From the NCBI GenBank assembly GCA_021432655.1, contig MU271567.1, positions 1 through 32,027 of the forward strand: 32,027 nucleotides of DNA, written 5' to 3'. A model generated the notes under the pieces. It worked only from the letters and a program-made list of their open reading frames with translations, searched no databases and was not told the origin of the DNA. Positions 5,160 to 32,027 of this stretch are shown here, piece after piece. Made by a program: the position numbers and the translations under genes. The number at the start of each line of letters is the position of its first letter. Position 1 is the stretch's first letter. Origin of the DNA: Atractiella rhizophila. Taxonomy: Eukaryota.

Positions 5160-8100
5160 ATGTCAGAACACAACCAAGTACGTTTTTTGTAGCGTTGCTC
5201 AGTCGCTTTGTAACCACCTCGTCTGACTGGACCATGTTCGCCGTGCAGGTCTTACGAGCGTTTTATAAGGAGATAGCGGTGGCGAGACGGCTGGTTGGCG
5301 GTAGGGGACGGGGTATGCCTAGAATGGCGAGAGGAGGTGAGTTATTGCTGTCCTATAGGTTGGGCAGTGGATTTTGGTGGTCGTGAACAAGTGGACCTCC
5401 ACTGCTACAGTCGAGCTGCATGTTGGCAAACTAGGGTTCTCTTTCCTTACTTTAATGCGAGGACTGTTCGTTGACAGGATGCAGCGATTTGTTCAGAGTT
5501 GCACATTCAACATCAATGCAGTCTTTTTGGTCAGCAAGATCGTAGACTTTCTTGTGCACTATTTGGACAGAGTTTCTCGATGATAGCTCTATGGTATATC
5601 ACATTTGCAAAGAAATAGAACTAACACATTTTTGCAGCTCGCCACTTTTCAATACGAACCTCCGCCTTGCCAAGTCTTGCCACTTCTTCGCCCCTGCGAT
5701 CCCGCCACCTCCACACCACTCTTCCCATCCGTGCCCTCTTCCGCAACGTAGAGTCAACCGTTTTCGAGTCTTACATCCGCTCACTCGCTCTCCGTTCGAA
5801 AGAAGTCCTTTCCTCGTCTTCCGACGTTTCACCCCACCTCTCCTACTTCCGCGCACTCATTGGTGACGATCCTAAGACGGTTTCTCTGGACGGGGAAACG
5901 CGAGAGGCGTACGCGGTCGAGTTAGTAGAGAGGTACGAAGAGCTTACCAAGATCTGGGAGGGATTCGGAGAGGTCACTACTGATGCGAATGGGGTCACGA
6001 ACGAGAGTGTGCCGGAATTGAGCGAGGTTTTAAGGAGCGACGAAGCGTTCAATTACTACCTCCGCGCCCTCCTACTCGCCAAAACCTCCGTCTCGTCCTC
6101 TGAAGTCATTTCCCTCGCATCGAAGCGACGCGACTCTATCCTCGCACACCATGGCGTCCAACCAGTTTCAACTCCTCTCCCCTCTGCTTCCGAAGGTGCG
6201 AGCACGGCGGTTGACCCAGAGCTTGCCAAGAGAGAGATCCTCAAGGCAGCGCTCTCGAGGAAGAAACCTAGGTTGGCAGAGCAGGCGAATTGGGCAGGGC
6301 TGGGGCAACGACTGGGTACGGGAGGTGGCGAAAAGGCCAGCGCCGGTGCGAGTGCTGCAGCTAGTAGTGGGAGTGGATTCTGGAGCTTTTCAAATCCTGG
6401 AAAGGCGCCAGGAACGGGAATTAACGACTTTAAACTCGTGATCGAAGAGAGTACGTTTTCTACGTGGCTGTCACAGTCACTATAAAGACAAGAAAGGATG
6501 TCTGTGCTGACATGTTGTTTGTGTGCGTATAGACAAGGGATCAACCACCTTTCGCATCTTTCGCTTTTTGGGAGTTGTTACGGTCGTCACTGTTGCTGTT
6601 CGTCCCACGCTCTCACTTTATGTCTGTCCTAATGAAGTGTGACGGTCATTACAGGGCATCACGTTGATGAGTTGGATGATGGAACACTTCAAATTCAACG
6701 TTGCTGGCGGAGCGGCTGGCGCTCGCGGGTTTGCTACTCAGGCCCCATCAAAGCATCAACCTAACGGGAAGAGCACTACTACCTTTGAGGACGTACATGG
6801 ATGTGAAGAGGCAAAGGAAGAGTTGGTGGAGATTGTGGAATTCTTGAAGAACCCTGTACGATTTACCAAGTTAGGAGGGAAGATGCCCAAGGGCTGTCTG
6901 CTTATTGGACCTCCTGGTTCGTCATCCCATAATATTCTTCGCATAGGAGGTACTGAAAATCGCTCGCGATCATAGGAACCGGAAAGACTCTTCTTGCTCG
7001 TGCGGTTGCAGGAGAAGCTGGTGTCCAGTTCTTCTTCGCTAGTGGTGCTGAATTCGATGAAATCTTCGTCGGTGTTGGAGCTGCAAGGATCAGGGAGCTC
7101 TTCAAACAGGCGCGTGCCAACTCACCTGCCATAGTCTTCATCGATGAATTGGACGCTATCGGATCAAGAAGGAACCCGAGGGATCAACAACACTCTAAGC
7201 AGACGCTCAATCAGTTGTTGGTCGAACTTGACGGGTTCAATCAGACTGAAGGGATCATTATTATTGTTTGTTTTCTCTTTCTCTCTTGATAGAGAAAAAT
7301 GGATGACATCGGATGACAACAGGGTGCAACCAACTTTCCCGAGATGCTGGATAAAGCTTTAACTCGTCCCGGTCGCTTCGACAAAGAGGTCGTCGTCCCT
7401 CTTCCCGACGTGCGAGGTCGACTTAACATTCTCAAACACCATTTGAAAACTATCAAGTACGATCGTTCTGTAGACCTTTCCACCGTCGCTCGCGGAACGA
7501 TTGGATTTTCAGGAGCAGAATTGCAGAATCTTGTCAATCAAGCTGCCATCAAAGCGGCGGTGGATGACCAAGAAATGGTTACACTTCGACACATGAATTG
7601 GGCGAGGGATAAGGTACGTTTATCTTTGATCGAGTGAAGTAAGAACTGACGAAGGCACCTGTGGTAGATTTTGATGGGAGCTGAACGGAGAAGTGCAGTC
7701 ATTACCCCAGAGAACAAACTCGCAACTGCCTACCATGAGGGCGGCCATGCCCTTGTCGCTCTCTTCAATGAACACTGCGATCCTCTCCATCAAGTGACGG
7801 TCATGCCCCGTGGTCGTGCTTTGGGTGTCACATCCTCTCTCCCTTTGATGGATAAGATGAACCGTAGTCACGTCGAGTACCTTGCACGAATCCAGATGGC
7901 AATGGGAGGACGGCGGCGGAGAAGCTTCTCTACGGAAAGGAGAACATAACCGATGGGGCCTCATCTGATATTCGCAATGCCTCGCACGTCGCTCACACCA
8001 TGGTTCGCCATTTTGGATTTTCGGATGCTCTAGGACCGGTCCATCTGGAGAAAGACGATGCTTCGATATCTCCCCAAACTAGAGCCCTGATTGAAAGCGA

Positions 8101-8395
8101 AGTCCGGGATATCATCGAGGACCAACAGACAAAAGCTTACGAACTGCTTGAGAAGCATCGCGTCGAGCTAGATCGCTTAGCCAACGCCCTGGTAGAATAC
8201 GAAACGCTTTCATTGGAGGAAGTCAAGGAGGTGATTAAGGGTGTTCCGTTGTTGGACCGGAAGAGGCAGTTGGAGGAGGCGAAGAAGCTCGATGTGAAGG
8301 AGCATGATGATCAGGTGGGAGGTGATGGGGGCCTAGGGGTGATCGTAGATGGAGGAAAGGAGCAGGAGCCAGCGGGTTTGAAGAGGGACCGGTAA
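5160..8395 (+). CDS. YME1: Mitochondrial i-AAA ATP-dependent metalloprotease (FtsH/Yme1 family)
   Basis: [25 protein letters not shown]; Walker A GPPG/TGKT split by an intron; Walker [24 protein letters not shown]; Zn motif AYHEGGHA; C-terminal [11 protein letters not shown]. The 5' exon model (ATG 5160) is tentative. There is one apparent frameshift at ~7912. Confidence 0.92.
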
Positions 8396-10936: not shown

Positions 10937-12264
10937 TCACCAGCTGCCTAACCACCAGTTCATGACATTAACATTTGTCTCTATCTGTTTGTACAACAGA
11001 CACGGAAATAAATTGGTGAATGGACGAAGGGAAACAACTTACTCAGGTCGAAGTCCACTATCGCAGGACCAGCGACGACGCTGATGTCCGACACACTCTC
11101 TGCCCAAGTGAGGAAGATGTAAGTCTGTCCAGTCGCAGAACCGTCAGTCGGAACCCTGCATCTTCCTTCGCTAACAGGAGCGAAGGTAGCTGAGGTCCCG
11201 GATAAAAAGGCACAAAAGAGTGGAGTGTCCTGTGGCGGACTGGGGGTGGAAACCGTGATTTGATCTCCAGGTTGAGGATTTAGAGGTGCAACGGTGAGCA
11301 TTGGGAATGCTTGAAGAGCCTGTGTCACGTTGCGGAGGTTAAGGAAGCTAACAAGAGGAGAGAGATGTCAAAAGCGCACAGGAGCGTTGGGGGCTCCAGG
11401 AACGAACATGGACGCTGCGAGAGTCACAACGCTTCGAGGAGAAATCCCAGCATCGAGTGTAGTTGGGAAGGGTGATTGTCCGTTGACGTATCGAATAAAA
11501 GCGTTGTGCCGAGCTGAAGAATATTCAAGTTTTCCGGCAGGTGCGGGATAGAAGCATACCTTCGATGGTGAGGATGGAACCAGCCGCAGAGAGATATGCA
11601 GGATCCTTTATCAACGGAGCCGCACCTATAGGCATTCGGAAAGCTCAGCAATGTCGTGTGCTTAAGGTAAATTAACTGACCAAGGTAAGCAGATATGCCT
11701 ACACCTTCAAGGATTTGTGCTACTGCCAGGAACGACCTGACATCGGTAGAGCTGAAGGTGTACTCTGACTCTTTGATCGGCTCTACTCCAGCAGCTGTAA
11801 AGGTTGTCAGCTCACGCCGCCGGGAAACTGTGGAGATGGAGGAAAGGGAGAAAGATGACAAACCCTGCAGTGCGGCAATAAGGAACTTAACATGTTCGTT
11901 CTCGTCGACTCGGATCTTTTCGATCTTCTTGAAAATGCTGGGAAAGCCGGCCTGACAACACCGTCGTCGGACTAGTGACTACTCGGAGAGAAAGAGATGA
12001 CCCACGTCTTCAAAATCCGCTTCGGTGTAATTCGACATTCCCTGGTTGTAGAACGTAGCCTCCAAATATTCACTAGGCACTCAGATGTCAGGAAGACGAT
12101 TAAAGAGGACTAAATACGAACAGGGTAAGTGCAAAATTGAGAATATCAATGTCCGTTATGCCATCATATCCACTCTCGTAGCTGTAGTCCTGCCGTTTCG
12201 CGATAGCCGCAGCGGACGTAAGGCCAAGAAGGCAGAGTGCAGGGATGGCTTTAGCAAACAACAT
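10937..12264 (-). CDS. Secreted ferritin-like domain protein, Rds1/desiccation-related family
   Basis: Signal peptide and KR site MLFAKAIPALCLLGLTSAAAIAKR; DIDILNFALTL/EYLEATFYNQG, DENEHVKFL, FLAVAQILEGVGISAYLGAA, AAGSILTIEARH; C-terminal GQTYIFLT..VVAGPAIV. Multiple GT..AG introns. Confidence 0.88.
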
Positions 12265-13607: not shown

Positions 13608-14878
13608 ATGCTCCTGCTCCTCTCTTTTCTTCTTGGTCTGCTCCTCCCGAACCTGTACGGATTCTTCTCCAGGCTGGTACGGAAAGAAGAGCCATACAAC
13701 TTGGATCATTTGCTGCTCAATGTGCAACCTGAAACTTGCAGTACGTGGCTAAATATGGGATATTGGAAGGTGATATAACTACTTTTCTAGTGTTCTTAGT
13801 CGACCTAACTTGACAGAAGGACACAGTCGACTTTCCACGAGCTTGCGAAGGTGGCATCCTTCTTCCTACCTTTGTTGAATCAGAAAAATTGACAGGAAAG
13901 GCCAGCGCTTGCCCTCAAATTGGCATCATTTTGGCGGTTTGCGACAGAACTGTCGAATAAAAGGTCTGTCCCTCTTCGTGATGCTCCCGTTTGAGCTCCA
14001 TTCATGCTGCGAGCTTATTCAAGTTTCCACCTGAAAAGTATCAAGGGTATTTGAGCTCTCATTTCTCGTTTTATTTTTAAATGGAGAAGAAAAGATCTCC
14101 CGCGAAGCAAGCGGTCCATTTCATAATAACCACAGTGCCAGCACTGACTTATTTTCTTCCCAAACTCGAAGAGGTTGGCTACGGCTGTGGTGACTCCCTC
14201 CTTCTGTGGGCCAACCGCTTCTCTCCCGCCCTGCTCGACGGTGTTACGTCCCTCTCGACACAACGCGATATCGCCATCGAAAAACTAAGGGGCTATGAGG
14301 TGGAATCGAAGGTGAAGGGAGATGTTCGATGTGGAGATGCGTGCGCAGATGGCGGAGAGGGCAAGCAGTATGATTTCATAATTGCCTGGATTGCGTCTAT
14401 CAGTTCGTCTCCTCTTACTTTCGTTTGCAGTCACTGACAGCGTGGAATATAGCTTCCCATCTCGCTTCAAGTTCCTCCAACTCTCTCATTCCCAGCTTGC
14501 CGACAACGGCACTCTCCTCCTCACCGATCTTGTACCCGTCCCTCCTACCTCCTCTAATCCGCTCACGCATCTCTTCACCATCACTCTCCATCGCCTCATC
14601 TGCCTACTGTCGTCCGCCCATACTCGAACCTCCTTCCCATGAACGAGTACATCGCCGAATTCAAACGGGCCGGTTATGAAGTCGAGGTTGAGGACCTGAC
14701 TGAATACGTGTTTGGAGGATTGAGGAGTTTCATTGAGCGCAGGGATAAGCAGAAACGATTTGAACCCTTCAAGGGAGGACCATGGGCGGGCTTCGTTGGC
14801 TTCGCAAAAGTCCTGCAGTGGTGGGAGGGAGGGAGAATGAAGTTTATACTTGTAAAGGCGACAAAGCAAGACCGTTAA
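13608..14878 (+). CDS. Class I SAM-dependent methyltransferase with hydrophobic N-terminus
   Basis: MLLLLSFLLGLLLP.., WLNMGYWK, DFPRACEALA, motif I EVGYGCGD, YDFII(ALDCVY)HFPSR, GTLLLTDL, EDLTEYVFGG. Two apparent 1-nt deletions (~14385, ~14618). Substrate unknown. Confidence 0.8.
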
Positions 14879-15379
14879 TTGGAGAGGGCAGTTCGAAGAG
14901 CTTATGCGCCTTCAAAAGCGAGTTCAGTTGAGTGTAGTTGGAAAGCACTCACCCTGTTAGGATGTAGACTTTCTGGTTTCTTTCAAACGTCGCAGTTGTG
15001 ATTTCATTCTAGCATCGCACTCAGCGAACGTAAACCCAACCACCTTAAGTAAAGAAACCCCGAATAGGTCAGTAGGGGAACTTAAAGATTGTCCCACTCT
15101 CTCTTCATCCAGGATTTAGGGAACATGGGAGCGCCGAGCTCCCATCTACGAATTTTCTGAGGGGCCCTTGATTTCTTGATGTAACTTATGCCTGACTTGA
15201 CTGGTGAGAAGTTTGATCGTAAATTCAAAAGTCATGACAAAAATTGTCGCCTATTTGCAATTGTTACATGAGGGATAGCCGCATACAAGGGGCTCAAACA
15301 TTGGACAAGGAAACTCTAATTCTCCGACTGCCATCTTTTCAAATTACGCCAAACAACCACACCACTGTGGATAAGCAAG

Positions 15380-16984
15380 ATGTTGGGATTACTCTCGTTG
15401 CTGCTCGCTTCGGCGGCAGCGTATCAGGTAGAAATAACGTCAGAATCGATGTCGAGACAAGTGTGCTCTGGGATGTGGGGGAAGGCGAACGTGGCAGGGG
15501 CAGCAGACCCATTTATCGAAAGTGAGCTCTTCTTCTCTTTGTGCCTGGGATATTGTTGGCCGGAATATCTGCTTTAGCAACATTTTGTGAATTGAATGGC
15601 AGAATATGCTGCTGCCTTGCTCCTTGTGCACAGCATCAACCTGGGCAAGTAACCTCAGCCATGAAGCTGCCAAGCTGTTCCCAACTTCCCATGTCCAATG
15701 CTTTTCGCCGGGGATGATTTTTGGTTTTACGGCATTTACTAAGAGTTTGGCAGAGTAGCTGGAAAGCTCGCACAGTCCTGCTGTGCTTCGGCGCAGCCTC
15801 GCTCTATTTTGGTTGATATAGTCGTACCATTTAGGATACTTTGCATCTTGAGACACTGGGCATCAAAGCAGGTCTTTTCTCATTCTGGAAGCGCGAACTC
15901 AACCTATTTTGAAACATGCTGACCGTCCCGGCGCCAGTCATCTTTGGCCCTTCTTCAAAGGGGTACCTCGCTCTTGTAGTTTACGAATGGGCGGATGCAC
16001 GTTATTTGGGGGTTGATCCCACTGGCACCAATGTGGAGAATGAATGGGGGGATGATGTAAGTCTCATTCTCCTCTTACCGGCCCTGCTAAACTGTGTTGT
16101 TAGCGAATATACGTCTGCACTCCATCTTCAGTATCATCTGGTTTATGCGACAGTGCCGATTTGGGGGAATTTCATCGTTTCACTACCGGATGGAAAGGGA
16201 ATCACAACTACAACTATTTGGACAACACATTTACACCTAGAGGAGGAGAAAGGGCCCGTTTCGGTATGTTTTTCCTTATCCCCAATACGCCGAACCGAAT
16301 ATGACCGGGACGGTGTGGAAAGATACGAAATTCCTCGCACTGGTTACTATTGCGTTGGGACGGTTCCTGTGACCTTAACAGTGGCAGGAGCGGACGGAGA
16401 AGCAGGAGAAGAAAGCTATTATGAAGGCGTGGTTGACTTCAGTAACACTTTCAAAGGATATCTACCTGCCAGCGAATACCCCAAAGTCGTTTTCTACGGC
16501 ACTCTTGTTCTTGTCTACCTGGCACTGGGAGCGACATGGGGTTGGCAATGCTGGAAGTTTCGGGAAGATTTGTTGCCTATCCAGGTGTGTTGGTTTCTTG
16601 CTCTGGGAGGTGAGCGGAGCTGACGGAAACCATCGTTGACAGCATTATATTACCGGCACCATTCTGTTTCTCATTGTCGAGATGGTTTCTATTTGGGGTA
16701 TGTTTCCATGGTCATCTCCAGGGGGGAAAGTTGATGCGTTTGACAGGTTACTATGCGTACCTCAACGCGTACGGCTCTGCAGGTTTCGGTCGTGTCCTTC
16801 TCGTCCTTGTTGCCATCTTGAACGCGGGCCGGAATTCACTATCCTTTTTCTTGCTCCTCCTTGTCTCGATGGGTTACGGTATCGTCCGCCCATCGCTGGG
16901 AAGCGTGATGACGAAAGTACGAATCTTGGCGGGTGTTCACTTTTTCTTCGGTATTATGTGAGCGGTTATCCCATCTTTCGAAGG
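15380..16984 (+). CDS. PTM1: PTM1/GOST (lung seven-TM receptor family) protein, 5' part, cut by the N gap
   Basis: Signal peptide, RQVCSGMWG, LVVYEWAD, TGYYCV, FSNTFKGYLPASEYPK, DLLPIQ, ILNAGRNSLSFFLLLLVSMGYGIVRPSLG, HFFFGI. Contains indels at ~16163-16300. Confidence 0.88.
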
Positions 16985-17009
16985 NNNNNNNNNNNNNNNN
17001 NNNNNNNNN
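16985..17009. other. Assembly gap (25 N)
   Basis: Run of 25 n. Confidence 0.99.
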
Positions 17010-17360
17010 TCGCTTCAGTCCAGAGGGGAGCAAATCCTAGTTGACGGTGTTGATATTTCCGGCATCAAGTACACAGATCCAGTGTTTGACTGCAGTAGTG
17101 CAACTATTCAGCGGGCAAAGGCGTGCAATCCTCACACGCAACGAGAGGTCGTACTGCGTACCATCTACGAAAAGGGGCAGGCTCAAAGTGAGTCTCACTG
17201 ATATAAAAAAGTGTAATACTGAACGGATGCGCAAGTGTGTGCTATGTGGGCCTGCTGACCAAGAAACTTGTACAGGAGCGGGAATGCGCAGCTGAAGAGA
17301 ATTTGCAAGACAGGGAAGCAACAAGGCAAGAGGAAGGCATCATGATGCAAACAGACTGAG
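17010..17360 (+). CDS. Possible 3' fragment of an unidentified gene
   Basis: Open frame from the gap, LQSRGEQILVDGVDISGIKYTDPVFDCSSATIQRAKACNPHTQREVVLRTIYEKGQAQ, ending at a GTGAGT donor (~17188); the last exon frame is unresolved. Confidence 0.3.
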
Positions 17361-18135
17361 TGATGTAATAAATTGCATGATTCTACATTCTCCACAAGCA
17401 AAATCATCAAGCATGTCATTGCTTGTTTAGTGGAATCAAGACATGCTCCATGTGCCTGTGATGCTGCAGAGTACTCCTAAATCATCATCCCTTACATTGC
17501 AAATCAGCTCGCTCAGGATGGAGACATAGTTAGACTTGAATGAGAAGAGAGGGAAGTCCAATCGCAAGAGGGGGAGATGGCTGATTTGCGGTTGTGCTGC
17601 TGACTTTCCTGCAGCATTTTCAAGTCGCGATGAGATTGTGGAATTGGAGAGACACACCTTCGGACACAATCCAAAGCTTGCGGCCAACTTGCGCAGTTTC
17701 AGCTGCATGGGGACTCGAAATCATGCATCAGAGGACGGTCGCTCACCGAGCTTATCAGACATCTCTCGCAAATCGAGCGACGAAAGGTTTCTCGCCTCTA
17801 GGCCAGAGTACCAACAGCATTGGCAGATAGTACGGAGAGCCGGATGCAACTAACAAAACACACGAACCCAGCAAATGGGAGATCGAGAGCGAACTCACCT
17901 TGAGCTCACTTCGGTGACTATTCAAATTTTGGATTTCCTGGACTCGAAACTTACTTCGCCGTGTAATGCAAAGGATACGATCGAGATGTAGTATAGGAAC
18001 GGGATTTGGTTGATGGATACAGATTTCTCTTTCTTCGATTGGACAACCTACACAAAGACAGCAGCAACACTCGACATCATTCTACAATTGTTCATTTCCT
18101 TAGATCCCTTCACACAGGTATCAATATCAATTCGT

Positions 18136-18812
18136 TTATGCCGCTTCCACCTGCCCACTCCATCAACATTGTAAACAGGAAGAAAGAGAAGAGACAGACC
18201 TGAGCGATGTGCGCGACGGCCTCTTCGTTGTCTGGGAACCTCTTGTGGAACTGTTACACACAATCCCGATCAACATTGTTTTTCCTCGCTCACTTCCGCA
18301 TGACATCGGGAAGAGAAGAGAGAAGGACTGACTTCGAGAAAAGTGTTTACGTATTCGGCCTTAGCCTCTTCCTTCGACATTCCCTTATGAGAATTCCACG
18401 CATCCCTTCCCACCACCGTCGTCAGCACCACATCTCCTTTGTTCCATCAGTAGAAGAGACGAGGACGGACCATTTAGCCTTGCCTACGAAATCGAGCACT
18501 CCAGGACGAGAGGTGTTAACGTCACCCTCAGTGGCTTGCTTATAAAATCCGTAAAACTATCCGCCATCCCACCATCCAATCAATCCATCGGGCACACGCA
18601 ACACGCCGCCGCGATTGCGACTGCGACTTCGAAGGAGGAGGAGGAGGAGATACGAACTCTGAGCTGATCGTCCTGGCTGGGTTGGACCGGTCCATTCTTG
18701 GGAAGACCCTGCAGCCATCGATCTGCTGGTTAGTTTCTCTGGTGATAACAGATGATGGCAGGAGACTGACCTGGATGATCTTGCAGGCGGTGGTGAACTT
18801 GGCGTCTGACAT
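18136..18812 (-). CDS. ACB1: Acyl-CoA-binding protein (ACBP/DBI), 6 short exons
   Basis: Spliced: [105 protein letters not shown]. Contains the ACBP signatures YKQATxGD and KAKWDAW. Confidence 0.95.
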
Positions 18813-19079
18813 ATCTTCGCTCTTGATTTAAACAGAATAGGTTAGGTTATGTATAGATACCGAATATACTTCTTCGTCCCTCGTCTTGGACTCGACTTGG
18901 TCGTCTCTTTCTTGGTTTTGGTTGGGAAGGAGATCAGATCTGTTCGATTCCAGATTCACGTGATTGTCTTTCCAGTTCTCCTCGTGTCCGTGTACGCGCA
19001 CCATAAACAAACCATCCACCAGCACCTGCTCTCTGCCTTCACTCAGCCAACAGAACACCGACACGACACAAAGAGGGAG

Positions 19080-20494
19080 ATGGTCCTGATACCCGTCCGT
19101 TCGCACGCGCGAGCCTACGCGCGCATCCTCTCCCACTCCCGCACCACCTCCGTCCTCCTCCTCTGCTCCCCGGACGTCGACGCGCTCTGTGCCTGTCGGA
19201 TCCTCACACAGCTGCTCAGGGACGACCACGTGCCGCATAAGGTGGTGCCCGTGGGCGGGTGGGAGGAATTGAGTAGGGTCGCGGAGGAGGTCGAGGGCGA
19301 TGGATCCGTATGTTGCTCGTTCAGTCTTCTCTGCGTCTGGACGAGGATGGGATGTGTCTGTGCTCTTGGTCTGTGTCGCTCATGTGTGCTCCCTGCTCCG
19401 TCTTGGGATAGATCGGTACCCTCGTCCTCCTCAACCTCGGAGGACTCTTCGATCTCTCCGAATTCTTCTCCCTCCCGAAATCCACGACCCTACATCTCAT
19501 AGACTCCCATCGTCCGACCAATCTTTCCAACCTGTTCGGAAGCCGCGTGTCCGCCGAAGAAGGAGAAGTCTGGGTGTGGGACGACGGAGAGGGCGATACA
19601 GACTTGGAGGAAGAGAAGCGGGCCTTTCAGCGTCTCGAAGTGAGTCCTCCCCTACACCGCTGTGTGCCGTATGTTCTATAGGAGTTGTGTTGAACCTTTA
19701 CTGTCGTGTAGTTCGAGCCGGAGAGCGATGGCGAGGACGAAGACGAAGACGAGGATGAAGATATCATCTTGCCCAATGGGCGGCGGCGGTTGCGCACCGG
19801 GAGCTCCACCGATTCAGAGGGAGAGGAAGGAGGAGAAGGAGGGAGTCGGAAACGACGACGCTTATCTGAGGATGGGGAGTCGCAATCGACCCGGACGTTG
19901 AATCGTCGGGAGAAGGGGATGTTGAAGAAGCGGATTCAGAAGTATTATTCGACTGGAACGTATTACGGACAATCCATAGCTTGCCAACTCTACACCCTCA
20001 CTTCTTCCCTCGGTCGCTCGTCCCCTGACCTTTTGTGGCTCGCTATATTGGGACTCACTTATCAGTTTACGAGTTCACTGATTGACAGGGATCGGTATGA
20101 TGCGTATGCGGAGGTGTTCAAGACGGAGGTGAGGAGGATGGGTGCTGGTGGAGGAGAGGAGGAGGAAAAGAATGCGGATAGGAGAGAGATTACGGAGGAA
20201 GAGGAATTGCAGTTTAGGTTGTTTAGGCACTGGAACCTCTTCGATTCCATGCTTCACTCGTCATACGTCGCCGGAAAGCTGGAGTTGTGGAGGGAAAAGG
20301 GTAGGAAGAGACTTCAAGGCTTATTAGCAAAGATGGGGTGCGTTCCCTGTCCCTCCTCGCTACTTTCACTGTGAAGAATAAACGCTGACCGACCAATTGC
20401 ACAAAGTTTCTCCCTGGATCAATGCCAACAAACTTACTCACACATGGCACCACCGCTCAAGAACTCTCTCCGTGCCTCACTCCTAGCCATCGCA
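19080..20494 (+). CDS. CDC45: DNA replication factor Cdc45, 5' half only
   Basis: [43 protein letters not shown], acidic loop, [63 protein letters not shown]; Cdc45 similarity stops at LRASLLAIA. Confidence 0.92.
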
Positions 20495-21283
20495 GTGGTC
20501 CCTCTTGAGGAAGCAAGCTATTTCATCCTCATTTTCATCTTCCCTCTGGCTTTCAGCTTGACCGCTTTTATGAGTATTGCTTTCGTCTACCCGATTGAAT
20601 ATAGAAACTGACATGAGGATAGTGTGGATCATGTATTCTCTCAACGCGACAATTGCTGATCTTGCTGCTCGCCGACAAACGTACAAGAAGCAGAGTACGC
20701 TGTCTTCTTTCACTCACAGCATACACTGATGATTATGTAGTGTTCACGAGGCTGTATCGCATTCTAATTGGCGCAGCACTTGTTATCTTTGCCTTCTTTG
20801 GTATGCATCCTAGTTCCTTGGTTCCCTTTCCGCGCTCACGGACATGCAGTGATCTCTTCAATCTCGTTCTCCAACCGACTCGATGAGGATTACGCTCCAG
20901 ATACGTGGAAAACGCGTTGGTTCTTGCTTGATGGATGGCTCGGCCTGCTCTATCTCTCCGTTTTCGCTTCCATAGCCTTCTTGTGGAGACCCACAGCTCA
21001 CAACCGCCGCCTCCTAATGTCTGACGAGCTTGCAACGGATGAAGACGATGAGCAGCTTGACACTTTGCGACCCCATGGAGCCGAGGATGACGATGATGAA
21101 AATGAAGATGATGCGAAAGAAGGAGAGTATCGCCCCCTCACCGGAAGAAATCGTGACGGTGGAATGAGGGTAGGGAATGATAGTCTCGTGTTCGACATTG
21201 GGGATGAGGAGGATGATGAAGATGATGAGAGGAAGGGATTGACGAGTGGAAAGAAGAAGGAACCGCCGCCGTACGAGGTTTGA
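20495..21283 (+). CDS. PTM1: PTM1/GOST 3' part (copy 1), in frame with the upstream CDC45 exon
   Basis: VVPLEEASYFILIFIFPLAFSLTAFM/MWIMYSLNATIADLAARRQTYKKQ/MFTRLYRIL../..WKTRWFLLDGWLGLLY..IAFLWRPTAHNRRL, then an acidic tail ending PPPYEV*. Confidence 0.88.
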
Positions 21284-23196
21284 TTTGATGCGGAATAGAT
21301 TATGGACGCTCTGTGAAAATTACGGATACTACAGATTCTTTCATGTAATTTCATCCGCCTCCGCCGTAATCAAATTGTCAGTAGTGGCTGCCACGGTTGT
21401 GAGTCTATGATGTGTGTTTCATTATGTTTATCAGGTCGAGTCTTGGGAATACCCCGTACATCCCTCTAGCCCTAAAGCATTGCTGGGATTCTTGCGGTTT
21501 CTTCCTCGAAGCGAACCGTCTTCCTCTCCTCAAACCAACCCCACCTCTCCAACTCCTCTATCGGCGGATCTGCGACTCTGTCTAGCGAGGGGTTACGGAT
21601 GTCAACTCCCAAGGGCCAAACTGTGTGGAGTTCCAGAAGTTCTTCTTGCTCAACCTCATTCCTAGTGAATTCATGTACCCTGTCTCTGATCGTGTCCCAA
21701 AAGAAGACCCTGAAATACGGATTCCGAACGTGCCTCGCAAAAACATCTGCCTGATAGTGAGGGTCGACGAGTAGGAGGTAAAGCTCATCTGTCCTTAGCT
21801 CCCAGGGATGAAGGTCATCGGGAGGTAGCTTCCAACACATAAAATTCTCATCGATGGCGACGTCGTCAACCCATGCCACCTTGAGATTGGTGGGAGGGAT
21901 GCCATATTTGTGGTAGAATGAACGAGTGTCATTTCTAAAGTCTTCCTTGCGGTTAGCCGGTCGTTTGAATTCGAGGTTGGCGAGTCGCTCCTCGAATTGT
22001 TCCTTCCTCGCGATCTCAATGGACTTTTTGCTAGAGGCGAATGCGAGTTGCGTTAATCACCTAATACCCATTGGCGAAACTAAGTAAAGCTCACTGGTAC
22101 AATTCGTCGTCCCTTTTTTGAGCAATAATGCGCATTCGTGTCTGCCTCTCTTGAACCGTCTCCTTCTTTGGTCCCTTTATCCATGCCTTCCGTTCCCTTA
22201 GATAATCGGCCACGGTAAAAGTATTAGGAGCTAAGATTTCCTTCGCCAACCAATGGACGTCGGTGCGCTCTTCAAACTTGATAGGATCGCTGATATAACT
22301 GTAACCAGGCTGAGCACGACTCAAGAAAACAAGGGAAACTGACTCTTTCCAAAGTTGGTCCCATTCCACAGGTGTATAGACAGCCGGTTTGTCTTTTCCA
22401 AAGAGTGGCATAATACTTGGGCTGTAAATACCAACTTCTTACAGATTACGCCGCAGGGTTTGTTGATGGGATATTGAACGACGATGCAAAGAGGGGACAG
22501 GAGGCCGGTAACTTGATAACTGAACCAGGGAACCTACAGTGATGTGGAAACCTGTGTTGATGCACGGGAAAAAACCTGTGTAACAAAGTGAGACTTGGTT
22601 CTCGACAAGGGATGTCATGGTGTGCTTACCAGCAGAAGGTAGCAAAGTGTCACCGTCAGAAATGGCTGCTGCCCCTTTGATCAAGTCTTTGGAATTAAAA
22701 TGTAGACGGCAACGCTAACTGTCTTCTTCAAACCAAGAGTTGATGGTTAGATGGTGGAAGACAAAACTCGAGGTGAAAATACGGGCGGAGCGGCTGCCAA
22801 AAAGAAACCAGCACTTTTTGGCAACAGCAGATCCACCCGAGGAAGCAAGTTTCGTTGTGGGAGTCAAAGTAACTTCTGCAAGCTGGAATTGAATTCGCTG
22901 CAAGAACGACACTTGACCAGTTGACTCGTTGATATCTGGTTAACTACCGCCGTAAGAAAGTCCTGTTGCTCCTAGAAAATCTTCCTTGACCACTGCTATC
23001 CACTTCCAATCACCAATCAGGGAGACAATTGTGGCGGATACCTTCACAGCGAAGAGCGTCAGTATGTGGCTGTTGGGAGGGACTGATGTCAGGTCCCGCA
23101 CAGTGCTGCCACCGAGTCTGTCCCTGTGTCAACCACTGCTGGAGACGCTTTCGACGAGGACGGTTTCAGCTCCATCACAAGGAGGTAACAAAGGCG
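20855..23196 (+). repeat. Copy 1 of a ~2.35-kb diverged direct duplication (matches 25992-28346)
   Basis: Colinear from TCTTCAATCTCGTTC to GGTAACAAAGGCG with scattered substitutions and non-coding indels. Confidence 0.97.
21472..22411 (-). CDS. Orphan protein, copy 1 (~3 exons; true start may lie further upstream)
   Basis: MPLFGKDKPAVYTPVEWDQLWK..KRDDELY/(intron GTGAGC)..IEIARKEQFEERLANLEFKRP..AWVDDVAIDENFMCWKLPPDDLHPWEL..RIPAML*. The frame is preserved in both copies. Confidence 0.7.
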
Positions 23197-23221
23197 NNNN
23201 NNNNNNNNNNNNNNNNNNNNN
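23197..23221. other. Assembly gap (25 N)
   Basis: Run of 25 n. Confidence 0.99.
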
Positions 23222-25991
23222 CTAGTGACGTACAGGTACTCGCTCCTTTCCCTTGGTTCCTTGGTCCTACGTATGGTTTCTTCCGTTTCTATTGTTCATG
23301 ACGCGGTTAATCTTACGCTATGTCGGAGCACTTGTGATTTATTAGTAGTTACATACGACATTCACTTTCTTCTGTCGCATGAGACGAAGAACATGCAAAC
23401 AGCCGCTCGTCGTTCTAGTCGTTAACAGCGCAACTCTCTTATGTACTAGGTGTGATAGGAGTACAGTCAAAGATATAAGTTAGCCCATCTGCTTTCGTTA
23501 TGAGTATTTTCGCCAGTTCGACTTTCGGTCTCCCTTCTACTTTTACTCCTACTTTATCGAACGAAGGAGTTCTCCCTGGTGTAGCCAAGGCTATCTCTTG
23601 GACGTTTGTTTGCTGTAACTCACCGAGGAAGCTTTCTACCCTATTGGCGAGTGTATTATGGCTTCTTTTTCACTTGTGGGCGGTTCTAAGCATGAAAGCA
23701 GTAGTGCGAAGGGTCGCTACCCGCCTGCTATGGCATTGGGTAGCTCTGTTCCTCCTCGTTCTTTTTCCTATCACTTAAGGCCGGGCGCAAGTTCTACCGT
23801 TGTTCCTGCTCTTCCTGTGCTGGCTTTGGACGTCTCGGCATGCGCAACTCCATGCGTATCATTGGACAGTTTGCGTAGTTGAAAGGGGGGACCTCTACTG
23901 GTACCTTTTGTATGGGGTTTATCTTTGGTAGAGCTGTTACTCTTTGTCTTACCACGGCCATTATATTACGACAGTTGCTACCAAAGGCAGTCGAGGCGAG
24001 TGGAGGGTCTCGTTCTTTGGTTGTGTGGACCTATCCGTTGTTTAGAAGGGCTTTGAAGGTCGTAACGGTTGGGGTACAGCGAGGGTCACGGTCCATCTGT
24101 TCTTGTTCTCACGGCATCTTTTGCTGAAACCCCATAAGCGACCGTCCATCTATAGGAAACTTTCACAATGACTTCAGTTGGTGCGGAAGTATTATCGAAA
24201 GAAGAGGACGAAGAGGCAGGCGAGGACGGTGACAATTCCAGTGTCCTTGGCAGGGTTGCGTTATCATTGGTCACGCTCCTTAAAGCATAGAAAGGTGTGG
24301 CAGGGCCAGTATAAGACCAAGCCGCATAACCCCTATTCCTTTTTGTATGGCTTTGCCGGAAAGAGGAGGAGATCCACATTTACACAACAGGTTTATCAAC
24401 ATCAACACTAAGGGAAAGGTAGGCCATCACTTTGCTACTTTAAGGGGTTTAGCCGTGACAGCGTATTTGGTCTACTATGACTTCTACCTCACGTCTGCAT
24501 ATAAGCGATTGTTGTGTCAAATCGTCCCGGCCATTCTCCTCTTACTCTGAATGTAGTAGGGGGGTAAGTAAGAGGTGTAACCACGGTCACCCTAGTTGGG
24601 GGTTTATTGCACGTAGGCGGGTAAGCATTTGATGTTCTCGCTCCATGGGGAAACTTCTTCCCGGTTTCTACTGACCGCGGCCCTGCCCAGTCGTACAAAG
24701 TTTTATCCAACTCAAGCGCGAAGGTCTTACTCTTTTCTGGACGAAACTACGGGTCACAGAGTTCTACGTTTCATAGGATTTACCATGCTGATATAGTTGG
24801 TTTTATCTCGCTCCGACGCGGCTTCGTGTCGTCCTGACACGCTCGAAAGGTCGATGAGACGGTTTGAGAATCATTTACGGCATTTTGGTTTTTAGTAGGG
24901 GCCGCTTTTCGTAACCTGTACCCTTCAACCCTTGTCGAACCGTCGAAGTACCGACTCCAATGAACGGGTCCAACTACGACACGTGTTCCTCCTTCCGTCG
25001 TCGTATAAGACGGTAAGTTAAGTGTTTTACAACGATTTCGTCTATAAGGCCGGTTGTTATAGGGTCCGTGTTTCTCTTCTTCTCGAGTGAAAGCTATTTA
25101 CCCAGACGACGGGGACGGTGCAAGCGGAAGGGGGTGTAGGGTCTCGTGTGAACAGAGCTGTAGCTAAGACTGCAATAAAGATGGACTATGCGACGGCGGC
25201 TTCGCTCGTCGTTTGCTCTCATTAGGGTTGTAGAACGAATAGGTGTCACCACACCAACAAACCGCATTAAACTTTTCTACCGTCAGCCTCTTAATCTCAA
25301 AGGAACAGGTTACAAACTCGGGGAACATACGCCGATAGGGAGTACATTGTTAACGTTTATCCGCTGTTAAAAACAGTACTGAAAACTTAAATGCTAGTTT
25401 GAAGAGTGGTCAGTTCAGTCCGTATTCAATGTAGTTCTTTAGTTCCCGGGGAGTCTTTTAAGCATCTACCCTCGAGCCGCGAGGGTACAAGGGATTTAGG
25501 ACCTACTTCTCTCTCACCCTGTTAGAAAATTCAAGGGGATGACTGGATAAGCCCCAAAGAAATGAATTCCGACCAACCCAAATGCAAGCGACTCACGCTA
25601 CGATCTTACTTTAGTGTTTGACGCTGCAAACTTTCTTTGGTCTTTCAGATGTAGGATTGTCCCACTCACGAAAGGTTGATGTGAGTTGACTTGAGCGAAA
25701 ACTTCCGCGTATTCGAGAAGCTTGACGGGAGAGTTAATTGCCAGAACGAAACAGCGGAAATGTTCATATTTGAAGTAAGAGGGAGGGAGGGTGGTGACGT
25801 CCTGAAAACGCTTCGGTTGCTTCGGGCGGGTACCAGGAGGGAACTTCCCAAGTTTAGCAAAGACGAATAGGGACGCGAGTTACTTTGAGGAGTTAGGAGG
25901 TTTGTGCATAAGTCAGTCCAGGAGTTGGAGCTGAAGTATTGGCCGGGCAAACTTAAGCCGCTACATGAGCAAGTACCCTTCCTCCAAGCTC
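23222..25991. repeat. Reversed, NOT complemented (mirror) copy of methyltransferase 3' end + intergenic + PTM1 5' two-thirds
   Basis: Read right-to-left from 25991 it gives CTCGAACCTCCTTCCCATGAACGAGTAC.. (= 14623 onward). 23627 corresponds to 16984, 23581 to 20495 and 23222 to 20854. The PTM1 ATG is read backwards at 25232-25230. Confidence 0.98.
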
Positions 25992-26420
25992 TCTTCAATC
26001 TCGTTCTCCAACCGACTCGATGAGGATTACGCTCCAGATACGTGGAAAACGCGTTGGTTCTTGCTTGATGGATGGCTCGGCCTGCTCTATCTCTCCGTTT
26101 TCGCTTCCATAGCCTTCTTGTGGAGACCCACAGCTCACAACCGCCGCCTCCTAATGTCTGACGAGCTTGCAACGGATGAAGACGATGAGCAGCTTGACAC
26201 TTTGCGACCCCATGGAGCCGAGGATGATGATGATGAAGATGAAGATGATGCGAAAGAAGGAGAGTATCGCCCTCTCACCGGAAGAAACCGTGACGGTGGC
26301 ATGAGGGTAGGGAATGATAGTCTCGTGTTCGATATTGGGGATGAGGAGGATGATGAAGATGATGAGAGGAAGGGATTGACGAGTGGAAAGAAAAAGGAAC
26401 CACCCCCGTACGAAGTTTGA
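25992..26420 (+). CDS. PTM1: PTM1/GOST last exon (copy 2); its upstream exons are in the mirrored segment
   Basis: SSISFSNRLDEDYAPDTWKTRWFLLDGW..WRPTAHNRRL..PPPYEV*; differs from copy 1 by one amino acid (N/D). Confidence 0.88.
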   Translation, partial: SSISFSNRLDEDYAPDTWKTRWFLLDGWLGLLYLSVFASIAFLWRPTAHNRRLLMSDELATDEDDEQLDTLRPHGAEDDDDEDEDDAKEGEYRPLTGRNRDGGMRVGNDSLVFDIGDEEDDEDDERKGLTSGKKKEPPPYEV

Positions 26421-26606
26421 TTGGATGCGGAATAGATTATGGACGCTCTGTGAAAATTACGGATACTACAGATTCTTTCATGTAATTTCGTCCTCCTCCG
26501 CCGAAATCAAATTGTCAGTAGTGGCTGCCGCGGCTGTGAGTTTAGGATTTGTGTTTCATTACGTTTATCAGGTCGAGTCTTGGGATACCCCGTACATCCC
26601 TCTAGC

Positions 26607-27545
26607 CTAAAGCATTGCTGGAATTCTTGCGGTTTCTTCCTCGAAGCGAACCATCTTCCTCTCCTCAAACCAGCCCCACCTCTCCAACTCCTCTACCGGC
26701 GGATCTGGGACTCTGTCTAGCGAGGGGTTACGGATGTCAACTCCCAAGGGCCAAACTGTGTGGAGTTCTAGAAGTTCTTCTTGTTCAACTTCATTCCTAG
26801 TGAATTCATGTACCCTGTCTCTGACCGTGTCCCAAAAGAAGACCCTAAAATACGGATTGCGAATGTGCCTCGCAAAAACATCTGCCTGATAGTGAGGGTC
26901 GACGAGTAGGAGGTAAAGCTCATCTGTCCTTAGCTCCCAGGGATGAAGGTCATCGGGAGGTAGCTTCCAACACATAAAATTCTCGTCGATGGCGACGTCG
27001 TCAACCCATGCCACCTTGAGATTGGTGGGAGGGATGCCATATTTGTGGTAGAATGAACGAGTGTCATTTCTAAAGTCTTCCTTGCGGTTAGCCGGTCGTT
27101 TGAATTCGAGGTTGGCGAGTCGCTCCTCGAATTGTTCCTTCCTCGCGATCTCAATGGACTTTTTGCTAGAGGCGAATGCGAGTTGCGTTAATCACCTAAT
27201 ACCCATTGGCAAACTAAGTAAAGCTCACTGGTACAATTCGTCGTCCCTTTTTTGAGCAATAATGCGCATTCGTTTCTGCCTCTCTTGAACTGTCTCCTTC
27301 TTTGGTCCCTTTATCCGTGCCTTCCGTTCCCTTAGATAATCGGCCACGGTAAAAGTATTAGGAGCTAAGATTTCCTTCGCCAACCAATGGACGTCGGTGC
27401 GCTCTTCAAAGTTGATAGGGTTGCTGATATAACTGTAACCAGGCTGAGCACGAGTCAAGAAAACAAGGGAAACTGACTCTTTCCAAAGTTGGTCCCATTC
27501 CACAGGTGTATAGACAGCCGGTTTGTCTTTTCCAAAGAGTGGCAT
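26607..27545 (-). CDS. Orphan protein, copy 2
   Basis: Same exon structure as 21472-22411 with about 9 amino-acid differences and no stops or coding indels seen. Confidence 0.7.
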
Positions 27546-30225
27546 AATACTTGGGCTGTAAATACGAACTTCTTACAGATGACGCCATGGGATATTGAAC
27601 GACGATGCAAAGAGGGGACAGGAGGCCGGTAACTTGATAACTGAGCCAGGGAACCTACAATCGACGTGGAAACCTGTGTTGAGGCAACGGAAAAAAACCT
27701 GTGGAACAAAGTGAGACTTCGTTCTCGACAAGGGATGTCATGGTGTGCTTACCAGCAGAAGGCAGCAAAGTGTCACCGTCAGAAATGGCTGCTGTCCCTT
27801 TGATCAAGTCCTTGGAATTAAAATGTAGACTGCAACGCTAACTGTCTTCTTCAAACCAAGAGTTTCTGGTTAGATGGTGGAAGACAAAGCTCGAGGGGGG
27901 AATACGGGCGGAGCGGCTGCCAAAAAGAAACCAGCACTGTTTGACAACCTTGAACTTTGCACAGCAGATCCACCCCAGGAAGCAAGTTTCGTGGTGGGAG
28001 TCAAAGTAACTTCTGCGAGATGGAGTTGAATTCGCTGCACGAGATTCAGGCAAGAACGACTTGACCAGTTGACTCGTTGATATCTGGTTAACTACCGCCG
28101 TAAAAAAGCCCTGTTGCTCCTAAAAAATCTTCCTTGACCACTGCTATCCACTTCCAATCACCAATCAGGGAGACGATTGTGGCGGATACCTTCACAGCGA
28201 AGAGCGTCAGTATGTGGCTGTTGGGAGGGACTGATGTCAGGTCCCGCACAGTGCTGCCACCGAGTCTGTCCCTGTGTCAATTCCACTGCTGGGGACGCTT
28301 TCGGTGAGGAGGGTTTCCGGTCCATCACAAGGAGGTAACAAAGGCGCTTTGACGCCGCAGGGGACACTTTGCACGTTTGATCGGATGCGTGTTTGACTTC
28401 AACCCCGTTTCGACGGTCCTGATTTTCGTTGACAGTCAAAATCAGTTAAATGGTGGATATATGGAGGTATAAATCAGCCAAGACAGCTCCCTCTGTTGAA
28501 CAGCATGCTGTTTAACCTGAGCGCTGGAGTCTTGGTTTGGGCTGGCTCGCTTTGAAGCTTTGATGCTCCATGGATGCATAGGCTTCCATCTATTTTGTCT
28601 GCCATCTGGCAGCTTAGAGGACAAGGCTGAAGAAACTTTGCTTCTTCATGGCAGTCTATGGCAGTCATGTGACCAGGAGTCTCCCGGTGTTGAGTCATCT
28701 GTCGAGCTAGCCATTGACTCGGACTGGACTGAAACGTCCAGAGACTCATGGCGCGAGGGACTTAGAAAGTGTTGAGCTAGCGAGGCGTGGACAGGGATGG
28801 CGTGCGCTCAGATCAGTTAGGTCGGCTGAGGTTCGTTACCTTTCTCCTTCTGTTGCAGAATGTGCGATCTTTGGGACGTTCCCTCGGGTTTTGTGGTATC
28901 AAGAGAGCGTTTATGACAACCGAGTTCAGCTCAGGGGCTGAGTCCTCAGCTCTGTCAGCGAGGTACACAGTTGGCTTTATGTCAAAAGGAGGCATTATGA
29001 CCAACGAGAGAAACATAGTTTCCCGGACGAACACACGCGTTTCATCGCTACCTGTTTAGAAGTGTAGCTATCATTCATTGCAGTTGGATCCCTCGTATGG
29101 TGATGATACGTTCCTTGGTCAGGAGCGACAAAGTAACAGCTGCACATTTTCACCCCATTTTGCTTGAATGGATGGTCGTATGGCTGTAAACTTGCTACGT
29201 AGTGTAGTTGTTCAGCCCAGCGTTTTTTACTAATTATCCATTAAGTTAACAATATGCTGTTGCACATCTCACATCGCCCTTCATTTATTATTTTACCCAC
29301 GCCGACGTGGTCGTGGGTGCAGCGCAGTGGTGATGGAAGTCAGACTGTTCACAATGTTTACATCGACAGCTCCCGAAACTTCGAGAGGAACTATTCAACG
29401 TTCCCCTCCAGGAACAGACGACCAACAGGAACTGGAGTTGTGCATTGGCAAATAATTGTTGCGGAATGGTCGTCTGTTGCCTGCCCGTCACGCCGATGCC
29501 AGGTCCGACATTCTCCATCCTTCCTCTCAAATATCGGTTACGGGTGGAAGGCTGAAGCCGGGGAGAGAGCGGACCGGGAAACACCGCTGTGTCATCCGCC
29601 GCCAAGTCCGCGTGAGGCGAGGAGTGTCTCTGCGCCTCTTGGGTTAATGTAGCTGGGTTAGCTGGGCCGGCTGGGTCAGTTGTTACAAACATCAATGCAA
29701 ACGCAAACCTGAGTTGGAAACTCACCAGCAGGCGTTCGTTTCGTGCATGCTAAGCAGCCAGGTTCCAATTCTTCCGACGCCGCCCAGGAATGAATTGGTC
29801 GCCCGGAGTCGCATTCCTGCGAAGTCCGGAAGCTGTATAAAGAGCGCGCCGCGGTGGTTGGAGTGGCAAAACGACTTCCAGCCCACACGGATCCATATCT
29901 CATCTCCTTGCGCGTCTAAGAGCTGCTTCGTAACGCCAAAGCAATATTGCTCTCATTCTCTCGTCACAGCACCCTGAACTAGAGATCGGCACGTCACGGA
30001 AAATACGCGGCTGCGAGCTTACTGCGTATATTCACCACGACGTCGAAGTTTGCATTCAGCAGCATCCAGAAGAGCTTTCGTGATTTCGGGATTACTTGAA
30101 GCTTTGGTCGAGTGAGCATTTGGAAGGCTGACGTGTCGTGCCCATAAAGCCAGCACCAGCTGCACGAGAACGGGACAGAGCGTAGCAGTTGCCACTGACC
30201 ACTGGGACTTCAACTGACAGGCGAC

Positions 30226-31264: not shown

Positions 31265-31648
31265 CTAATTGATGAAGGTGAGTGTCTTGGCTCTATCTCG
31301 TAAACGAGGTCGTTCCATACTCTCCTTCCCACCAAGCTTGAATAATTCCGTGCTTTCTCTTCTTATTCGAGCGTCCGTGACCTCAACAAGATGGTCTAAT
31401 AGCAGTAAAACGATACCAAGCACACCAGAGAGGACCCCGAGCACCGCGAATATGATTCCCGCAATGTCCCCTACTCCAATGTTCTGAATAGCCCCGAAGA
31501 GCGAGGAAAATGCAACCAATGGTCTATATAGCGAGGAGTTCTTTTTTTGTGAGGCTTCTTGGCGTGACTCGGTGATGTTAGGGTGCAAGAACCGTACCCG
31601 TTTAGGTGAGCTAGGTCTAGTCTCACGCATGAACAGGAAGCATTTCAT
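31265..31648 (-). CDS. Hypothetical small single-pass membrane protein
   Basis: 127-aa ORF with a hydrophobic Gly-rich stretch IAGIIFAVLGVLSGVLGIVLLLL followed by a charged tail; 5' end uncertain. Confidence 0.4.
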   Translation of the reverse strand: MKCFLFMRETRPSSPKRVRFLHPNITESRQEASQKKNSSLYRPLVAFSSLFGAIQNIGVGDIAGIIFAVLGVLSGVLGIVLLLLDHLVEVTDARIRRESTELFKLGGKESMERPRLRDRAKTLTFIN

Positions 31649-32027
31649 GGTCGTAAGTTACAAGAAAGTCCGGGTGAACAAAGTTCCCCATGCTATTTTC
31701 TAGTGTAGCAATAGTTACTGCCCTAGGGGGAATAATGTGTGGCGTGAAAGCGAGAGCTCGCGCAGTACGTTGGTCGGACCTACTTCGGACAAGGTGCAGG
31801 TCGACCTGCCGCTCGCAGGGACATACGAGAAGAGTTTACTAAAGAGGGAGTCTCTTTTAATGACTGGAATATACTTTCATTGCTTGTTGTAGCGAGAGGA
31901 CGCCAAGTATTTAAGAAGTTGCGAATAGTTTTCAGGAGTGAGGCCTATGCGACCGACGCTTTTATGTTCATCCACTTAAGTAAAGGGAAGTCAAGCAGAG
32001 AGTTCAGCCAAATCCGCAACCCACTGT

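Follow-up and report, generated by a model that had tools for sequence, protein, structure and literature searches.

Backward Reading of a 2770-nt Segment of an Atractiella rhizophila Scaffold Recovers Most of a PTM1-like Gene and Points to an In Silico Artefact

Does the genome of Atractiella rhizophila carry a kilobase mirror image of its own sequence, or were the letters of one segment of the deposited scaffold put in the wrong order by software? The question is raised by positions 23222-25991 of contig MU271567.1 (assembly GCA_021432655.1), which look gene-less as deposited but, when read backwards letter by letter without complementation, match other parts of the same contig and appear to encode most of a PTM1-like protein. 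We analysed the first 32,027 nucleotides of this contig (hereafter, the window, to which all coordinates refer), proceeding from an initial annotation that had been made from the letters alone. As will be seen, the match to the mirror partners is real, contigs derived from public reads carry the backward reading across the right boundary of the segment, and the backward reading restores a conserved gene. We consider it very probable that the 2770-nt mirror is an in silico artefact and corresponds to no biological structure. The segment is composed of the following parts, none of which is assigned a strand.

23222-25991, no strand: the mirror segment; its 2770 nt are stored in reverse order and uncomplemented, and its first base follows directly on the second of two gaps in the window.
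23627-25991, no strand: mirror of 14623-16984, containing an upstream region, PTM1-like exons 1-5 and a partial intron.
23582-23626, no strand: 45 nt found only here; read backwards, 27 nt of an intron 3′ end followed by 18 nt encoding FSIGTD.
23222-23581, no strand: mirror of 20495-20854, from which it differs by 7 substitutions; its backward reading contains PTM1-like exons 6-8 together with the initial 6 nt of the last exon.

For the comparison by BLAST, positions 23222-25991 were reversed, not complemented, and used as a query against the window with the segment itself masked. Positions 1-2365 of the reversed query aligned to the plus strand of 14623-16984 with 99.49% identity over 2369 columns (1 mismatch, 10 gap openings, E value 0.0), and positions 2411-2770 aligned to 20495-20854 with 98.06% identity over 360 columns (7 mismatches, no gaps). 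As deposited, the same segment had no match in the window on either strand at E ≤ 1e-5. When the whole window was reversed, no reverse-only pair was retrieved beyond these two. The 45 nt lying between the two blocks, which the initial annotation had described as unique when read from 23626 to 23582, are indeed so: none of their 32 14-mers recurs elsewhere in the window, be it in the forward, reverse-complement, reversed or complemented reading. At the other end of the segment, the proposed seamless join was also found: the last nine reversed letters followed by 25992-26000 make up the same 18-mer as 20846-20863, so that the join at 25991/25992 is exact, with neither a gap nor an overlap.

The gene-less appearance of the segment as deposited holds as well. 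There is no open reading frame (ORF) longer than 107 amino acids, and none of five ORFs of the deposited segment produced a Pfam match above cut-off, the best having an E value of 0.02 and 15 bits against a cut-off of 27. In its composition, the segment is a complex sequence of ~48% GC with roughly balanced base use, and its mirror partner is located 6-9 kb away. The mirror identity is thus confirmed; it is far beyond chance and lies at the coordinates that the initial annotation gave.

We next consider what the backward reading encodes. In the forward copies, Pfam detects PF21902 (PTM1-like_N; 28.5 bits, cut-off 27.4) and PF06814 (GOST_TM) within 15913-16961; the C-terminal end of PF06814 is detected twice, in 20768-21283 and in 25935-26420. 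A homology search with a window ORF retrieved two annotated A. rhizophila proteins, P0001 (568 amino acids), which is 100% identical to the query ORF, and P0002 (556 amino acids), which is annotated on a different contig. The precomputed domains of both proteins belong to the same two families, PF21902 and PF06814. When P0002 is aligned to the backward reading of the segment followed by the sequence from 25992 onwards, it is recovered in collinear exact blocks that account for all residues but 48, 369, 393 and 493. The gene restored in this way consists of nine exons separated by seven introns of 47-55 nt and one of ~417 nt, and the exon for residues 413-492 of P0002 spans the 25991/25992 boundary. 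Residues 337-342 of P0002, FSIGTD, are encoded only by the 45-nt stretch; at this site, the sequences of three more distant fungal homologues continue without a break over the same length, with the G and the T invariant. Membership of the backward reading in the PTM1-like/GOST seven-transmembrane family rests on the exact collinearity with P0002. Judged by this collinearity, the segment read backwards and continued through 25992-26420 encodes a complete PTM1-like/GOST gene apart from two 1-nt frame errors, which bears out, with that reservation, the contiguous PTM1 gene that the mirror had been proposed to hide.

To compare the boundary with read-derived sequence, we used the three public runs found to contain part of 23222-28500 (X1, X2 and X3) and aligned their contigs to 23222-29000. 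X1 and X2 derive from a single sample; X3 bears a different organism code and has no recorded library kind. X1 and X2 each yielded a 498-nt contig that aligned whole on 25992-26489, so starting exactly at 25992. Each of them also yielded one contig that crosses the boundary, and in both of these 30 of 30 leftward letters equal the backward reading of 23224-23253. A second contig, likewise present in each of the two runs, carries a variant differing in the last letter before 25992. Since two variants are present in X1 and X2, 25991/25992 is a two-haplotype branch point in the read graph. In X3, a 1361-nt contig has, to the left of 25990, 27 letters equal to positions 2690-2716 of the backward reading; these letters are joined straight to the exon start, a 49-nt GT..AG interval being skipped, and the junction is the splice predicted by P0002.

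Contigs crossing 25992 carry letters other than the deposited ones in all three runs. Downstream of the mirror, the third contig of the scaffold (contig 3) differs from the X1 and X2 contigs at 0-2 positions in several pieces. All 16 bins of 25924-29000 were covered in each of the three runs, and depth was 0 in 14 of 14 bins of 23222-25923 in each of them; this uncovered part was not counted as evidence. Read-derived sequence, genomic as well as spliced, thus crosses the boundary in the backward reading. Where the initial annotation had proposed raw reads as a check on the deposited order, it is the backward reading that is carried at 25992 by X1 and X2, and the upstream exon by X3.

The orientation of the segment was also assessed with a k-mer score, in which the strand-symmetrised frequency of each k-mer is compared with the frequency of its letter-reversed form. 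The score per nt was +0.060 outside the segment and -0.057 inside it. All three informative dinucleotide contrasts (CA+TG vs AC+GT, GA+TC vs AG+CT, and AT vs TA) are flipped in the mirror. Such a strand-symmetric score finds the mirror without a reference and could therefore serve in screening assemblies for errors of this class.

The mirror is not a simple copy of 14623-16984, and the differences that had been listed for it are real. Alignment of the two reveals 12 difference columns, namely 11 indel columns (10 events) and a single substitution; indels make up 10 of the 11 difference events, and in 8 of the 10 the length of a homopolymer run is changed. At 16163, the alignment shows G5 in 14623-16984 and G4 in the mirror, as claimed. 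An extra T is indeed present in the mirror, but it is found at 25214 and not at ~25213. The initial annotation had further credited the mirror with a CAG splice acceptor that the forward copy lacks at ~16296. Here, the letter difference stands, an A present in the mirror being absent between 16296 and 16297 of the forward copy; the acceptor is not supported, as P0002 reads this stretch as coding. A 35-nt GT..CAG intron at ~16262-16297 was accordingly regarded as possible but not adopted: P0002 stays in frame through the stretch, and the seven short introns of the gene measure 47-55 nt. Relative to P0002, the backward reading contains two frame breaks (the extra T at 25214 and one base near 24357), and the forward copy contains three (at 16163, ~16254 and ~16297). 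Neither copy is thus clean, each carrying frame errors of its own. The preponderance of indels among the differences points to a noisy-read consensus, i.e., to a source noisier than that of the neighbouring contig.

How did the segment come to lie where it does? The window contains exactly two runs of 25 N and is therefore a scaffold of three contigs, with the following layout around the PTM1-like locus.

14623-16984, plus strand: forward copy at the end of contig 1, with the PTM1-like N-terminal domain, GOST_TM positions 1-119 and three frame-breaking indels relative to P0002.
16985-17009: 25-N gap 1.
17010-20494, plus strand: left-hand portion of contig 2, not related to the PTM1 locus; it contains the CDC45 N-terminal half and ends at the abrupt junction 20494/20495.
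18846-20374: CDC45 N-terminal half, Pfam profile positions 1-352 of 624.
20495-23196, plus strand: right part of contig 2, a diverged second copy of the PTM1-like 3′ part and its downstream region, starting in mid-exon.
23197-23221: 25-N gap 2.
25990-28346, plus strand: direct copy, in contig 3, of 20853-23196, 94.9% identical, detected by ordinary self-comparison.
25992-26420, plus strand: remainder of the last PTM1-like exon, here normally oriented and including the GOST_TM C-terminal end; 25992 is taken as the first base of the original contig.

Ordinary self-comparison of the window revealed a single direct repeat, 20853-23196 versus 25990-28346. The right part of contig 2 is first 98% and then 94.9% identical to the contig 3 locus. 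Contig 2 (17010-23196) is most likely a chimeric second-haplotype contig that was wrongly interposed in the scaffold. Since it is foreign here and copies what follows in contig 3, contigs 1 and 3 are truly adjacent, and they really overlap once the extension is restored to its proper order. Among the four gap flanks in the window, one is mirrored; the other three are normal by homology or by k-mer score.

At 20494/20495, the CDC45 half directly abuts a PTM1-like mid-exon, the left 3.5 kb of contig 2 being the CDC45 side. The C-terminal half of CDC45 was not met among the window ORFs scanned, and no Pfam family was detected in 14 ORFs of 17010-18841. The junction may mean that the contig is chimeric, or else that the second haplotype is truly rearranged here.

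The consequences of this layout can be followed in the public gene model P0001. Its exons are located in contig 1 (15380-15520, 15940-16584, 16640-16699 and 16746-16949), in contig 2 (20486-20572, 20625-20693 and 20743-20802) and, for the final exon, in contig 3 (25989-26417). P0001 deviates from P0002 and from three other fungi at four places. A 47-nt intron is read as coding sequence, the extra G at 16163 bringing the model back into frame; the frame is shifted from ~16254 to 16297; AIA, derived from the CDC45 side of the contig 2 junction, replaces GIMFSIGTD; and GGRL replaces VI. Leu426 of P0001 corresponds to CTC at 25989-25991, the triplet with which the mirror ends as deposited, and AG precedes it; P0002 and the true reading have Ile at this place. 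To judge from these coordinates, P0001 is a chimera of exons from three contigs that includes intron-derived and frameshifted residues, and P0002 looks like the correct form. The Leu426 codon suggests that the mirror was already present when the scaffold was annotated; since P0001 apparently uses the deposited letters 25989-25991, later manipulation is unlikely.

The mirror identity and its boundaries, the backward reading in contigs built from reads, the genes encoded and the chimeric nature of P0001 are shown above; from them we infer the following order of events and kind of software. A heterozygous site immediately to the left of 25992 splits the graph, and a short-read graph assembler would for this reason have stopped contig 3 at that base. 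A scaffolder would then have placed the chimeric contig of the other haplotype (17010-23196) between the adjacent contigs 1 and 3. Error-prone reads would have been used to extend contig 3 leftwards by 2770 nt, with the extension written backwards; as no overlap between this extension and the end of contig 2 was possible, a minimal 25-N gap would have been left. The backward writing itself amounts to half a reverse-complement: a plus-strand string may have been reversed, or a minus-strand string complemented and left unreversed, the results being identical. The segment is thus, very probably, genuine sequence of the locus, from the 5′ region of the PTM1-like gene through exons 1-8 into exon 9, put in the wrong letter order by assembly software. 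The outcome is a redundant, unreadable copy of 14623-16984 together with the only copy of 45 nt of the gene, and the annotation pipeline afterwards built the chimeric P0001 across three contigs.

Both boundaries of the mirror coincide with assembly units, the left one with a gap edge and the right one with the X1/X2 contig start and branch point. The orientation error beside the 25-N gap that the initial annotation had put forward is backed by the X1/X2 contigs (30/30 letters), by the spliced exon of X3 and by the PTM1-like gene. That the error occurred at an extension or gap-filling step is, in our view, somewhat more probable than an origin elsewhere; that the program was PBJelly can be suggested only tentatively. 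PBJelly treats 25 or more N as a gap and extends flanks into gaps (English et al. 2012, PMC3504050). Gaps in which the extensions fail to overlap are called "overfilled" and typically occur at scaffolding errors (PMC3504050, PMC9635638); overfilled or flank-extended long-read gaps are also discussed in PMC7757076. PBJelly2 was applied to a PacBio assembly of another fungus (Armillaria preprint). The marks of an overfilled gap are all found at the locus studied here: the gap is of 25 N, the extension fails to overlap the opposite flank, and the added sequence is rich in indels.

The mirror could also have arisen when the scaffold was written, if a separate contig or patch in minus orientation was half reverse-complemented and abutted to contig 3 without Ns. 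An identical letter pattern would be expected in this case, and the exact join at 25991/25992 fits a piece that was split off at a graph branch point. However, a separate component is normally set off by Ns, like the other two contig joins, and the indel-rich differences from 14623-16984 suggest a data source noisier than the neighbouring contig, while contig 3 downstream agrees with the X1 and X2 contigs to within the few differences given above; we regard this origin as unlikely. The initial annotation had also allowed for deliberate manipulation, that is, reversal of the segment after deposition as a planted control or a tampering with the record. Leu426 of P0001, with its CTC codon and the AG before it, suggests that the annotators already saw the mirror, and the right boundary falls exactly on the X1/X2 graph branch point, i.e., on a branch point of independent runs that an arbitrary manipulation would miss. 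Nothing specific speaks for deliberate reversal, except that a clean, in-place, gap-bounded reversal is what a planted control might look like, and we consider it highly improbable.

Finally, the genome might truly carry a kilobase mirror repeat in the deposited order, for which the deposited sequence alone can be cited. The contigs crossing the boundary differ from this order in three of three runs, two of them giving the exact backward reading and one the spliced exon. Moreover, the deposited order destroys a conserved gene that the backward reading restores, and k-mer usage is inverted in the segment. No copying mechanism is known to give parallel mirror copies of complex sequence, and a real repeat of this kind can for practical purposes be dismissed.

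Several points nevertheless weigh against the artefact reading that we prefer, or against parts of it. X1 and X2 may be the assembly's own sample, in which case there is no second independent sample, although the same circumstance may suit a test of the assembly; for X3, the library kind is not on record. For P0001 residues 423-425 (GGR), no placement gave canonical sites at every junction, and the case for P0001 using the mirror therefore depends chiefly on a single codon and a single AG. By k-mer score, contig 2 shows no mirroring at its left end (from 17010 on), so the left-extension fault is absent there or that end was never extended. In the literature searched, we found no account of the making of this assembly and none linking Atractiella rhizophila with PBJelly; the software is therefore inferred. 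Resetting of an overfilled gap to 25 N is presumably what the program does. The passages on PBJelly in PMC3504050, PMC9635638 and PMC7757076 describe no backward writing by a gap filler.

Two further stretches of the window, neither with adjacent Ns, also show an inverted k-mer score. The first, 4954-5452, has an inverted score with z of ~-3.9 to -4.0 and flipped dinucleotide contrasts; in 4801-5600, the open frame is 151 amino acids when reversed versus 86 as deposited. The second, 31521-31984, towards the end of the window, has z of ~-4.2 to -4.5 and, again, flipped dinucleotide contrasts, and the open frame in 31401-32027 is 145 amino acids when reversed versus 93 as deposited. The lowest z among 218 other windows was ~-2.1, and both suspect stretches are within the range of sub-windows of the proven mirror; as the two were picked as extreme segments, their z-scores are somewhat inflated. 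They may be a second and a third backwards-written patch. That backwards writing was systematic and not a one-off is a suggestion we regard as rather doubtful. Were it true, an appreciable share of the assembly would be in mirror order, and possibly other assemblies made with the same software version as well, and mirror stretches would escape ordinary quality control and silently damage gene models.

Near the first of these stretches, a 286-amino-acid open frame is present on the plus strand at 5625-6482, upstream of the exons of an AAA/M41 protease gene located at ~6679-8392. The k-mer score of this frame is mildly negative, and neither a Pfam family nor, by homology search, a longer relative was found for it. 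P0008, a sister-copy model of 515 amino acids annotated on a different contig, aligns to 6679-8392 alone, and its comparison with the reversed window gave no match at E below 2. Further along contig 1, a ferritin-like ORF is located on the minus strand at 11427-11978.

On the other side of the mirror, the minus-strand region downstream of the PTM1-like gene (26531-27935) has a copy in 21400-22800. Seven ORFs of this region and its copy (21472-22714 and 27455-28761) gave no Pfam family. Contigs of X3 skip 27166-27228, 27433-27477, 27698-27752 and 27789-27905, all with CT..AC ends, and these four intervals look like introns of an expressed minus-strand gene, as if the X3 contigs derived from its spliced RNA. 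At 28968/28969, left-hand contigs diverge from the deposited sequence after 28969 in all three runs and right-hand contigs do so before 28968 in X1 and X2; the overhangs, of up to 55 letters, have no counterpart in the window, whichever of the four readings is taken. An insertion carried by the runs is probably missing here from the deposited sequence, or else the strains differ.

The mirror is not a real genomic feature; it reveals no new biology and is of low biological interest. What it affects is the use of the data: 2.8 kb of a public reference scaffold is unrecognisable to aligners, gene finders and homology searches, and the greater part of a conserved gene is hidden there, with 45 nt of it present in no other copy. 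Together with the interposed contig 2, the mirror has yielded a deviant deposited protein, P0001. The value of the observation thus lies in data quality and in curation of this assembly.

Among known systems, haplotigs and other false duplications resemble the locus in that two diverged PTM1-like 3′ copies (98% and 94.9% identical) stand in tandem in the scaffold and two variants are seen in X1 and X2; they account for contig 2 and the wrong join, but not for the mirror itself. Natural mirror repeats of the H-DNA, triplex-forming type consist of short homopurine/homopyrimidine tracts with adjacent halves. The segment shares with them the formal mirror symmetry of letters. Unlike them, it is 2770 nt of complex sequence with its partner 6-9 kb away, and it is contradicted by read-derived contigs.

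Sequence that is reversed and not complemented is otherwise encountered in negative controls. In Dfam, such sequence is reportedly used as a deliberate decoy. Reversed, non-complemented genome sequence also served as a deliberate negative control in a preprint on RRE (10.64898/2026.04.14.718546). In the literature we searched on reversed but not complemented sequence, only deliberate decoys or synthetic constructs were found; neither there nor in the literature searched on mirror repeats and misassembly did we find a report of kilobase mirror segments in deposited assemblies. The string operation in these decoys is the same as here, and it has the same effect, composition being kept while homology and genes are lost. 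The decoys are labelled controls, however, whereas the segment is an unlabelled part of a deposited scaffold.

The overfilled gap of PBJelly shares further features with the locus. In both, sequence is added at a contig end beside a minimal gap, a wrong join prevents overlap, scaffold sequence is spuriously duplicated and the added sequence contains errors of the indel type. The difference is in the order of letters: here, the added sequence is written backwards and uncomplemented.

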